A stretch of 46,314 nucleotides of DNA from a virus (Duplodnaviria > Heunggongvirae > Uroviricota > Caudoviricetes), in the IMG/VR virus record IMGVR_UViG_2880361019_000007; one strand, given 5' to 3'. Shown here piece by piece: positions 3,001-6,000 of the stretch (positions within the stretch are counted from its first letter, which is position 1; every line of letters starts with the position of its first letter). A program made the position numbers.

Positions 3001-6000
3001 TGGCAAATTGAGCGAATCCATCGGTTCAAAATGCGCCGCTCCATCAGGTCAAAATGACACGATGGAAGAGGTCAAAATGAAACGCTCCATTGGTTCAAAA
3101 CGACCCAATGTCATCGGGTCAAAATGGCCTGATGATCTTACAGAGAATACAACAGAGATTACTACAGAGAATAAAAACACTTTTCGTCCGGAAGCTTCGC
3201 AACCGGACCCGCAGACGACTGAACAGGATTTTTTAACCCGGAACTCCGACGCGGTTGTGTTTAGTGCGAAAAAACGCCAGTGGGGTAGCAGGGAGGATTT
3301 GGCGTGTGCGCAGTGGATCTGGGGGCGGATCGTGGGTCTCTACGAACAGGCAGCCAGTGATGATGGCGAGATCATGCGACCAAAAGAGCCTAACTGGACT
3401 GCCTGGGCCAATGACGTGCGCACAATGCGGATGCTGGATGGCAGAAGCCACAGACAAATTTGCGAAATGTTTGGTCGGGTACAGCGAGATCCATTCTGGG
3501 TAAAAAACATCATGAGCCCGTCAAAGCTTCGTGAAAAATGGGATGAACTGGTCATCCGTCTGGGGCGTTCGTCTGTACAGCGTTGTGTGAATCATATTTC
3601 TGAACCGGATACAGAAATTCCGCCTGGTTTCAGGGGATAAGTGTTGATTTCAGGTCATGAGGTAATTTTAAGGGGGACTTGTGGCAAAAGTTTTTACACA
3701 AGAAGAGCGGGAAAAAATTAAAGGGCAGGTGGTGGAACTCGTGCGCCAGAGCGGTCGTGAGACGCTACGGCAACTGGAAGCTAAAACAGGTGCGACAAGA
3801 TATCTGATGAGCATTCTTGCCAGAGAGCTGGTTGCCAGTGGTGATGTATATCACTCTGGCTATGGGTTGTTCCCGTCAGAACAGGCTCGTAAGGACTGGC
3901 AAAACGCCCGCAAAAAACTCTCGAGGGCAAAGGTGAAGAAACCTGTTGTGGTTGATCCGGGCCTTATCTGGACATTACCCGACGGAGAAATACGCCGCTA
4001 CGACAGGCGTATGAACATAATCTGTCGCGAGTGCCGGAAGAGCGAAGTTATGCAGCGTGTATTGGCGTTCTATCAGGGATATGCCTAGAATTGTCACAGG
4101 TAATGAAATTAAAGAGTATTGGTTCGGATATGAATTGACATTTTCGCGGCAAGAGCTAAAAATAGCCTACTTGTTGGTTTTGTGTGAAAAGCAGACATTT
4201 TGAGGCTCAGGATTTGTTATCAAATAAGACCAATACTTATCGATATTAATACGCATTAAATACTGTGCAATACATTATTGCATTTTATTAGATAAGTGAT
4301 ATTTAGGGAAAAGAAAAGTCATAGAAAACAGGCCGCTATTTGTTGTTGGATTTTATAGGCTATATCTAGATTATCTTGCCACTGCGGTCTCTGTTTACCT
4401 AACAGCTTGGGCTTCTTTGCATGCAAGTTTGTAATAACGAGTGTAATCAAACGGAATGTCTATTAATCCTAAACTTAAGCGTATCGCGCTACGCTATCCA
4501 GCGTTATTCCAATATGAGTCCCCCTATATGGCAAGAAAATTAATAATATTCGGCAACGGTCTCGGTATGGCTTTAGATCCTGCTCACTTCTCCTTAGACA
4601 GAGCGTTGGAAGAAATTTGGCATCGCCCCAATTTTTTAAAAGATATCCACAAGCAACTTATCGAGCGTTGTCTTCAGCGGCAAGGTCCACCAGAAGGAGA
4701 ACATGAGTTGGATACCCTTCACCAGGCTGTCACATATTGTAAAGCTCTTGCTCAAATTGGAGAGGGGAACGTGCATTGGCTTACTGAAGATGGACTAAAC
4801 TTCCCCAAAATTACCGCCACTTATATTCACAAAGTTGCAACCAGGTTGCATAATTACGATAAAGGTTTGCCACAAAGATTCGAAAATGCGCTTGTGGAGT
4901 TTGTAAAGAACACACACTCACATATCGCGACATTAAACTATGACAAATTATTATACAATTCATTCATAGATAATGATATATTCAACGGGTATGATGGGGT
5001 TTTAGTTGATGGGATGCTAAGCCACGGATTTTCCTCTGCAGCGCTCGAACGGAAATACAATCGTAGGTTTGGTTATTATTTGCACTTGCATGGTTCACCA
5101 CTATTTATTAATCAGCATGAAAATGGGTGATGCTGCCAACTTACTGATTTAGTGTATGATGGTGTTTTTGAGGTGCTCCAGTGGCTTCTGTTTCTATCAG
5201 CTGTCCCTCCTGTTCAGCTACTGACGGGGTGGTGCGTAACGGCAAAAGCACCGCCGGACATCAGCGCTATCTCTGCTCTCACTGCCGTAAAACATGGCAA
5301 CTGCAGTTCACTTACACCGCTTCTCAACCCGGTACGCACCAGAAAATCATTGATATGGCCATGAATGGCGTTGGATGCCGGGCAACAGCCCGCATTATGG
5401 GCGTTGGCCTCAACACGATTTTACGTCACTTAAAAAACTCAGGCCGCAGTCGGTAACCTCGCGCATACAGCCGGGCAGTGACGTCATCGTCTGCGCGGAA
5501 ATGGACGAACAGTGGGGCTATGTCGGGGCTAAATCGCGCCAGCGCTGGCTGTTTTACGCGTATGACAGGCTCCGGAAGACGGTTGTTGCGCACGTATTCG
5601 GTGAACGCACGATGGCGACGCTGGGGCGTCTTATGAGCCTGCTGTCACCCTTTGACGTGGTGATATGGATGACGGATGGCTGGCCGCTGTATGAATCCCG
5701 CCTGAAGGGAAAGCAGCACGTAATCAGCAAGCGATATACGCAGCGAATTGAGCGGCATAACCTGAATCTGAGGCAGCACCTGGCACGGCTGGGACGGAAG
5801 TCGCTGTCGTTCTCAAAATCGGTGGAGCTGCATGACAAAGTCATCGGGCATTATCTGAACATAAAACACTATCAATAAGTTGGAGTCATTACCTGAAAAT
5901 GTTTTAAAACTTTCACGCTCACAACTTACTCTTGACATAGATGAACCTAGTGAGCATATAGTGTTAACTCATATAAAAAGAAAACCGTCAGTTATAGCAG

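Follow-up and report, generated by a model that had tools for sequence, protein, structure and literature searches.

Does the run of short direct repeats found inside an O-like phage gene correspond to the site at which the phage starts its replication, or is it something else, such as a set of control sites, the target of another protein, or the reflection of a repetitive peptide? The question is raised by a window of 46,314 nt (the whole stretch of DNA analysed here, from the Caudoviricetes record IMGVR_UViG_2880361019_000007). On the basis of the comparative sequence analysis described below, we suggest that the region 2997-3180 is very probably the origin from which a lambdoid prophage of the Qin/mEp460 type replicates vegetatively, located inside the prophage's own initiator gene.

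The initiator gene and its repeats

The gene that harbors the repeats, its domains and its neighbors are the following:

1477-1935, minus strand: cI-like repressor, upstream of the initiator
1962-2189: Cro, upstream of the initiator
2173-2694: cII/YdaT-like gene, directly upstream of the initiator
2675-3640, plus strand: replication initiator gene, 321 aa, "O-like" (phrog_391), with the start ATG at 2675 as in annotated homologues
2675-2986, plus strand: predicted N-terminal winged-helix DNA-binding domain, aa 1-104 (AF2 model)
2870-2911, plus strand: predicted recognition helix, aa 66-79, with the putative specificity residue Ser67 at 2873-2875
3260-3556, plus strand: C-terminal domain homologous to the lambda O C-domain (BLASTP against lambda O)
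3572-3637, plus strand: 22-aa C-terminal tail (SVQRCVNHISEPDTEIPPGFRG) resembling the C-terminus of host DnaT (phmmer, NCBIfam)
3681-4088, plus strand: DUF977/LygF gene (PF06163, E 6e-29), always 3' of tail-bearing initiators

Early rightward transcription enters the ori region from this upstream context (1477-2694), where the promoter-like site at 1906-1935 is a consensus match only, and the junction between the initiator and DUF977 is also found in HannyBb, Tritos, 606R7 and the Qin prophage of DH5alpha. Inside the initiator gene, the scan for promoters and terminators gave nothing above shuffled sequences. The reading of the region as a structured RNA was dropped, since no Rfam family was matched over 2400-3900, and a DnaA-dependent origin is not indicated, given that the array shows no enrichment of DnaA boxes.

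Over its full length the initiator corresponds to phrog_391 ("replication initiation O-like", E 1.6e-91), and it is 98-99% identical to the annotated gene of phages HannyBb, PhiR42_1 and mEp460_ev081; a Pfam search gave no match at E <= 0.01. Its residues 147-294 align by BLASTP with residues 135-270 of lambda O (34% identity over 148 aa, E 1e-26), and no similarity to lambda O was detected by the same method in its N-terminal ~105 residues. The family PF04492 (Phage_rep_O), to which lambda O itself belongs with a value of 5.7e-36, had no match in the initiator, nor did PF06970 (RepA_N), and PDB searches with the whole protein and with an N-domain profile returned no match for the N-domain. 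Since the single-sequence AF2 model reached a pLDDT of only 42, an alignment of 65 sequences was used instead; the N-domain is then confidently predicted to be a winged helix (pLDDT 87). The iteron-containing linker has low confidence in the single-sequence model and is probably disordered. The predicted fold matches that of the iteron-binding RepA_N NTDs (DnaD-like winged helix). On this prediction the N-domain is a DnaD/RepA_N-like winged helix, and by sequence it does not belong to lambda O's family; the protein encoded by this initiator-solo module is a mosaic, in which a DnaD/RepA_N-like NTD is followed by a CTD like that of lambda O and by a tail like that of DnaT.

The region 2997-3133 embeds six semi-palindromic direct repeats of about 21 bp (21-23 bp) with the core GGTCAAAATGACC and spacings of 23, 23, 23, 23 and 24, followed by a tract of shorter repeats:

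2997-3017: iteron 0, degenerate (ATGGTGGCAAATTGAGCGAAT; also given as GGCAAATTGAGC), PWM score 10.7 bits, 23 nt upstream of iteron 1
3020-3040: iteron 1 (ATCGGTTCAAAATGCGCCGCT), from repeat search and PWM
3043-3063: iteron 2 (ATCAGGTCAAAATGACACGAT), with the best dyad symmetry and a minus-strand PWM match of 14.0 bits
3066-3086: iteron 3 (AAGAGGTCAAAATGAAACGCT), the copy least conserved among relatives
3089-3109: iteron 4 (ATTGGTTCAAAACGACCCAAT), from repeat search and PWM
3113-3133: iteron 5 (ATCGGGTCAAAATGGCCTGAT), adjoining the A-rich tract, minus-strand PWM score 15.2 bits
3134-3180: putative DNA-unwinding element, a GATC site at 3134 and then three 12-mers

The first-pass annotation had reported five direct repeats with a period of about 23 bp. 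This was confirmed both by a repeat finder (five copies, spacing 23/23/23/24) and by TRF (period 23 over 3017-3090, plus a separate 12-nt repeat present 2.8 times over 3140-3173), the cores being of the GGTCAAAATG type, or a one-base variant of it, at 3024 (GTTCAAAATG), 3047, 3070 (rather than 3069, as first given), 3093 (GTTCAAAACG) and 3117; however, the sixth copy, at 2997-3017, had been missed. With a PWM derived from the other five copies, its score falls in the top 0.015% of window positions, and in two relatives, that is mEp460_4F5 and a Klebsiella phage, the same position is occupied by a better copy, GGTCAAAGTGA. All the copies lie within the linker-coding part of 2675-3640, and the placement of the repeats inside the O-like gene was thus correct.

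Conservation and co-variation among relatives

The N-domain family comprises 10,312 clusters at 50% identity. A profile scan with one genome per species retrieved 80 loci (from Enterobacterales, Pseudomonas, Acinetobacter, Comamonas, Bacilli, Lactobacilli, Staphylococcus, Actinobacteria and others), and the 75 below 90% identity were used for the statistics; the N-domains of the relatives found in a scan of viral contigs were all 100% identical, so that the co-variation analysis was performed on genome contigs instead. Over the 150 nt that follow the N-domain in the 75 loci, the autocorrelation peaks at lag 23 (0.381) and lag 46 (0.341) on a background of about 0.26, and the best lag falls between 21 and 24 in 64 of the 75 loci, versus 17/75 and 18/73 in control regions of the same loci. 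The earlier reading had named relatives as the place to look for a loss of the repeats; the array is kept in them, including the close relatives HannyBb, mEp460_4F5 and the Klebsiella phage. What varies among relatives, on one scaffold, is the iteron sequence (family logo GGKCAAAWTGMMC). Iteron cores are 84-92% identical versus 64-72% for the N-domain coding DNA, and the spacers between the cores are 47-51% identical in two more distant relatives. In the Klebsiella phage the C-domain has been swapped for a Phg_2220_C domain and the N-domain, the iterons and the 12-mers have been kept in spite of the exchange, a modular pattern to be expected if an origin is inherited together with the domain that binds it. 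Related initiators also occur in plasmid records of about 40 kb, which may be phage-plasmids or circularised phage contigs; these records carry no weight here as a sign of autonomous replication.

The iteron consensus of 45 loci was then set against each column in the alignment of N-domains. The co-varying base pair, formed by position -1 and its dyad mate +7, flanks the CAAnnTG core (CAAAATG here), and the co-varying residue is number 67, which lies where the predicted recognition helix begins, in the motif W-S-x-[S/D/K]-T. Ser at this position is accompanied by T/A at -1/+7 in 18 of 19 loci, Asp by G/C in 13 of 13, and Lys by A(T)/T in 6 of 6; the mutual information amounts to 1.45-1.54 bits (z 14.8, with a runner-up column at z <= 8), phylogeny being only partly corrected for in this comparison. 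Pantoea N-domains that are 86% identical carry K or D at residue 67 and have different iterons, whereas those of E. coli, Staphylococcus and Anoxybacillus, just 51-55% identical, have Ser67 in common and the same GGTCAAAATGACC iteron; thus, the co-variation is not simply the result of phylogeny. In our opinion it represents strong computational evidence that the encoded initiator binds the iterons. If the residue-67 code is true, an S67D protein would prefer GGGCAAAATGCCC and an S67K protein GGACAAAATGTCC, and the Ser/Asp/Lys67 code would provide a testable rule for origin specificity, hence for whether related prophages exclude each other or are incompatible in their replication.

The other conserved element is the tract 3134-3180, where an AT-rich stretch following the repeats had already been recognized. 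Its A+T content is only 68%, with 66% purines on the plus strand; the GC content drops to 0.30 at 3140-3179, and the least stable 40-mer of the entire ORF is located here, at 3138-3177 (dG -44.3 versus a window mean of -56.0, sd 4.5). The tract encodes the linker peptide TENTTEITTENK and contains, at 3140-3175, three 12-mers (ACAGAGAATACA, ACAGAGATTACT and ACAGAGAATAAA; consensus ACAGAGAnTACw); its identity among relatives is 91-100%, as against just 64-72% for the DNA encoding their N-domains. In the 75 loci the motif [CA]A[GA]AGAnT[AT]C has a density of 5.86 per kb over the first 300 nt 3' of the N-domain versus 0.063 per kb elsewhere, that is, an enrichment of about 93-fold; 60 of the 71 intervals between neighboring copies measure 12 nt, and at least two copies are present in 45/75 loci. 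Where the tract encodes T-E-x-T, Thr is specified by ACA or ACT in 157 of 158 cases (179/403 elsewhere in the same ORFs) and Glu by GAG in 66 of 66 (239/456 elsewhere), a choice that holds across loci with a GC content ranging from 0.33 to 0.63, and the first of the Firmicutes copies falls in another frame, giving RDF or RDY and then TEIx. The fixed codons and this change of frame argue for a 12-mer word conserved as DNA. Its distribution extends from Enterobacterales to Firmicutes and Actinobacteria, and the word is common to initiators with unrelated N-domains: in the O genes of Stx phages the tract is 97.5% identical over 40 nt, behind iterons unlike those of both lambda and the window, and in phage Tritos a related word, ACAGATAAAGAT, is repeated three times after the GTCACG-type iterons of an unrelated initiator. 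In lambda, unwinding needs no more than two iterons plus the AT-rich tract, and O binds AT-rich single-stranded DNA (PMC7466680). Because of this precedent, we consider it more likely than not, by analogy, that the 12-mer tract acts as an unwinding or loading element. Our literature searches for the 12-mer and for the peptide TENTTEITTE found no paper.

A possible mechanism and its alternatives

The way in which such an origin might work can be outlined as follows. Dimers of the N-terminal winged helix would bind the five or six semi-palindromic iterons, whose GGTCAAAATGACC cores are 23 bp apart, with the helix 66-79 lying in the major groove and Ser67 reading, as the co-variation suggests, the T/A pair that flanks CAAAATG. 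The phased protein-DNA array might then strain the adjacent A-rich tract (3134-3180) up to its opening, as could be expected from its low stability, its conservation and the analogy with lambda. Lastly, and this is the weakest step, the lambda-O-like C-domain and the DnaT-like tail may recruit the host DnaB-DnaC, possibly via the PriA/PriB/DnaT restart route; the host helicase-loading machinery is proposed because the phage is without a loader or a helicase of its own. PHROG scans disclosed neither a P-, DnaC- or DnaB-like gene nor any other replication gene among the ORFs between the initiator and Q, and no such partner gene was found in the relatives examined either. The literature that we searched gave no binding, unwinding or origin-activity data for this initiator family. 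The prophage of this window contains two copies of IS1 and is perhaps defective, so that the origin may be intact and yet unused here.

As for the tail, its last 17-22 residues are nearly the same as those of E. coli DnaT, or primosomal protein I (VNHISEPDTEIPPGFRG here, VNTVSEPDSQIPPGFRG in DnaT), whereas the rest of the initiator does not match DnaT at all. In a phmmer search against the PDB, the tail matches the DnaT entries 2ru8, 6aep and 9zbt with E values of 0.008-0.03, the match being short (22 aa), and only positions 158-179 of the NCBIfam model NF002770 (DnaT) are matched, with 16.9 bits versus a cut-off of 201. The RAST-style name "Primosomal protein I" borne by some phage records is accounted for by this resemblance to the DnaT C-terminus and must be regarded as a mis-annotation, since it is the tail alone that matches. 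A tail of identical type is found on the unrelated solo initiator of a Tritos-type phage. Among the relatives, the motif is present in 19 of the 27 hosted by Enterobacterales and in no others, which fits the reported restriction of DnaT to gamma-proteobacteria; the Firmicutes relatives possess acidic-aromatic C-terminal tails, recalling the SSB C-terminus. We would tentatively propose, with more doubt than confidence, that the tail serves as a link between the origin complex and the loading of the host helicase. No contacts of the extreme DnaT tail are stated in the 2026 preprimosome paper, and literature searches for DnaT-like phage proteins returned nothing relevant.

Different roles might be imagined for the repeats. 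The one that survives best, unlikely as we judge it, is that they are initiator sites serving mainly for control (autoregulation, copy number/handcuffing or the exclusion of related phages), with initiation occurring elsewhere. Plasmid iterons do double duty in control, which lends the idea some plausibility, as do the reported inhibition of lambdoid phages by ectopic copies of lambda ori and the isolated PWM matches at 10343 and 42413, outside the array. However, the number of such matches is close to the chance expectation, a second array was found in the window neither by the repeat scan nor with the PWM, and the presence of a conserved, least stable 12-mer tract directly 3' of the array is origin grammar, not that of a pure operator.

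Less credible still is the possibility that the repeats are a mere DNA shadow of a repeated or low-complexity linker peptide (IGSK..., TENT...), with no role as DNA. The linker is probably disordered in the low-confidence part of the AF2 model, T/E-rich linkers recur among relatives, and the first-pass annotation had described a repeated peptide, IGSK, which is indeed encoded (as S/V-IGSK) by copies 1, 4 and 5. Nevertheless, copies 1-5 start in frames 0, 2, 1, 0 and 0 and give SIGSK, SGQND, EVKMK, SIGSK and VIGSK, respectively; copies 2 and 3 use the other two frames, and the apparent repetition arises because the remaining three share one frame by chance. The reading of the iterons in all three frames and a 23-nt period that is not a multiple of 3, yet is kept in 64/75 relatives, argue that the repeats were selected as DNA and not as peptide, and this frame analysis largely refutes the idea, against which also stand the codons of the 12-mers, fixed whatever the GC content of the host, the other frame of the first Firmicutes copy, and the co-variation of an iteron base pair with an N-domain residue. 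Equally improbable is the binding of a protein other than the initiator (the cII/YdaT-like regulator, Cro/CI, DnaA, IHF, etc.), to which the cII-like gene immediately upstream and one exact DnaA-box match at 3692 might point, but the array travels with the N-domain across relatives having different neighbors and hosts, it co-varies with a residue of that domain, and DnaA-box-like sites are not concentrated in it.

Significance and comparison with known systems

The design of the origin is in itself textbook lambda, that is, a known design in an uncharacterised initiator family, and for this reason the basic finding will hardly surprise specialists; the less ordinary parts are the cross-phylum 12-mer and the DnaT-like tail. 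They raise a wider possibility, which we put forward with considerable reserve, of an origin grammar valid across phyla, for which the literature searched gave no earlier description: a RepA_N/DnaD-like winged-helix coding region, then three to six iterons obeying a code that depends on the single residue 67, then two to four copies of an invariant CAGAGAnTAC, with the 12-mer as a universal loading/melting signal and the tails as host-matched plug-in motifs. If this were true, the 12-mer would be read by something conserved, either a ssDNA-binding mode of the initiator or the host replicative helicase, and the tails (DnaT-like in Enterobacterales, SSB-like and acidic in Firmicutes) would link "solo" initiators to host helicase loading with no need of a loader from the phage. 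An initiator of this solo type, ending in a DnaT-like tail, might offer a handle on the recruitment of DnaB by loader-less phages, and it bears on the role of the conserved DnaT tail, left open by recent preprimosome structures. A more practical consequence concerns annotation. Among 5426 complete E. coli genomes, 1956 carry the ori segment; one example is the Qin prophage region of a DH5alpha assembly, whose copy of the gene is still called "hypothetical protein". Naming the gene and its origin would therefore close a common gap, besides correcting the "Primosomal protein I" mislabel.

A final question concerns the known systems that this origin resembles. The idea, advanced at first sight of the sequence, that the repeats and the AT-rich tract mirror lambda ori inside O agrees with every computational test (phased dyad iterons, position in the linker, C-domain, conservation, co-variation). 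In both systems the initiator gene itself contains the iterons, which separate the part encoding the DNA-binding N-domain from that of a homologous C-domain; they are dyads about two helical turns apart (20/24/23 in lambda, 23/23/23/23/24 here) with an A-tract at their center (TCCCTCAAAACGAGGGA in lambda, GGTCAAAATGACC here), and a purine-rich A/T tract follows them on the same side. The likeness is qualified, however, by an N-domain family that differs from that of lambda O and by the absence of a P-like, DnaC-like or DnaB-like partner gene downstream. Compared with the four iterons of lambda, the array contains five or six, and a DnaT-like tail replaces the C-terminus proper to lambda O. The oris of phi80, 82, P22 (gene 18) and the Stx phages were grouped with that of lambda as the closest system.

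The second term of comparison is represented by the RepA_N initiators of plasmids and satellites, such as RepA of pSK41 and pTZ2162 and RepA of the Vibrio PLE. Their origins reportedly lie within the rep coding sequence, as Weaver et al. are said to have described in 2009. RepA_N iterons are semi-palindromes converging on a poly-A tract, and of the two domains of the protein the NTD binds DNA and the CTD is variable and host-specific (PMC7145576). The semi-palindromic iterons analyzed here also converge on a poly-A tract, the NTD is predicted to be a DnaD-like winged helix as well, and the CTD is likewise swapped among relatives; the differences consist in the lack of PF06970 membership, in the phage context and in the lambda-O-like CTD. 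Lastly, a single initiator gene with an internal ori, without a phage helicase or loader, corresponds to the "initiator-solo" phage replication modules that Weigel and Seitz reportedly treated in FEMS Microbiol Rev in 2006; our literature search, outside which that review lay, found no paper on the origin, the 12-mer or the tail of this family. As far as these analogies allow, it appears that the origin would work like lambda ori in O and like the origins of RepA_N plasmids, the initiator being a member of neither PF04492 nor PF06970.

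Residue 67, the iterons and the 12-bp repeat

2873-2875: Ser67 codon of the initiator gene; the residue co-varies with iteron positions -1/+7
3140-3175: 12-bp repeat CAGAGAnTAC (two to four copies per locus; also at 1800-1855 in locus L085 and at 1928-1963 in L166, a Tritos-type phage)
10343-10363 (+): single match to the iteron matrix, 17.5 bits
42413-42433 (-): single match to the iteron matrix, 17.2 bits

Across the relatives retrieved by the profile scan (L086-L165), residue 67 of the initiator N-domain tracks the base pair flanking the iteron core (-1/+7), serine being found with T/A, aspartate with G/C and lysine with A/T. 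The comparison of these sequences points to a single-residue “recognition code” between the N-domain and its own iterons, and the pattern is the same across phyla. The two isolated matches to the iteron matrix are probably without meaning, since chance alone would give about 0.5 matches of this kind.

The 12-bp repeat CAGAGAnTAC occurs in 45 of the 75 loci (among L090-L165), ranges from Enterobacterales to Firmicutes, and stands behind iterons of differing specificity and also behind unrelated initiator N-domains. The codons used within it do not vary with the locus, and the first of the copies in Firmicutes loci is read in a different frame. The repeat is conserved at the DNA level.

Start, naming and surroundings of the initiator gene

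The longest open reading frame of the initiator begins at TTG 2621; homologues and annotations begin at ATG 2675 (MSLLF…). Within 2621-2694, the last 20 nt of the cII/YdaT-like gene are shared with the start of the initiator gene, which suggests that the two genes are translationally coupled. The same module (YdaT-like gene, initiator, DUF977) also follows dicA-dicC in a Qin-type prophage (L168, the Qin prophage region of E. coli DH5alpha). Among 5426 complete E. coli genomes, 1956 carry the putative ori segment. The initiator is named “hypothetical protein” in RefSeq and “Primosomal protein I” in certain phage records.

Prophage integrity and accessory genes

5126-5893 (+): complete IS1, 768 bp, exact terminal repeats, splitting ORF 4456-5130 / 5880-6263
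6956-7606: phrog_5786, gene of unknown function, upstream of the regulator gene
7584-8690: 368-aa regulator gene, HTH and metalloprotease-like (ImmA/IrrE-type), early-right region
27250-28017 (-): complete IS1, 768 bp, exact terminal repeats, in the late (structural) gene region
43053-43143: 45-nt tandem repeat, two copies, 84% match, within the tail-fibre-like ORF 42102-43421

With one IS1 inside an ORF (itself without a PHROG match) and another in the late region, the prophage may be defective. The regulator and phrog_5786, which lie between the replication module and the Q module, may form a cassette with an accessory or defence-related role. No short-period repeat in the window is stronger than the 45-nt tandem, whose translation is a collagen-like Gly-x-x stretch.

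C-terminal tails

3572-3637 (2498-2563 in L166): 22-aa DnaT-like tail, nearly identical to the host DnaT C-terminus

This tail is borne by two unrelated “solo” initiators, that of the window and that of L166, and in both a DUF977/LygF gene comes after the initiator; among the relatives, it is confined to those of Enterobacterales. Many Firmicutes initiators (L120-L165, last 10-20 codons) carry acidic/aromatic ends (…KDDLPF, …EDFRFDDET, …DKELPW). These may represent a further host-matched docking motif, and they resemble the C-terminal peptide of SSB.
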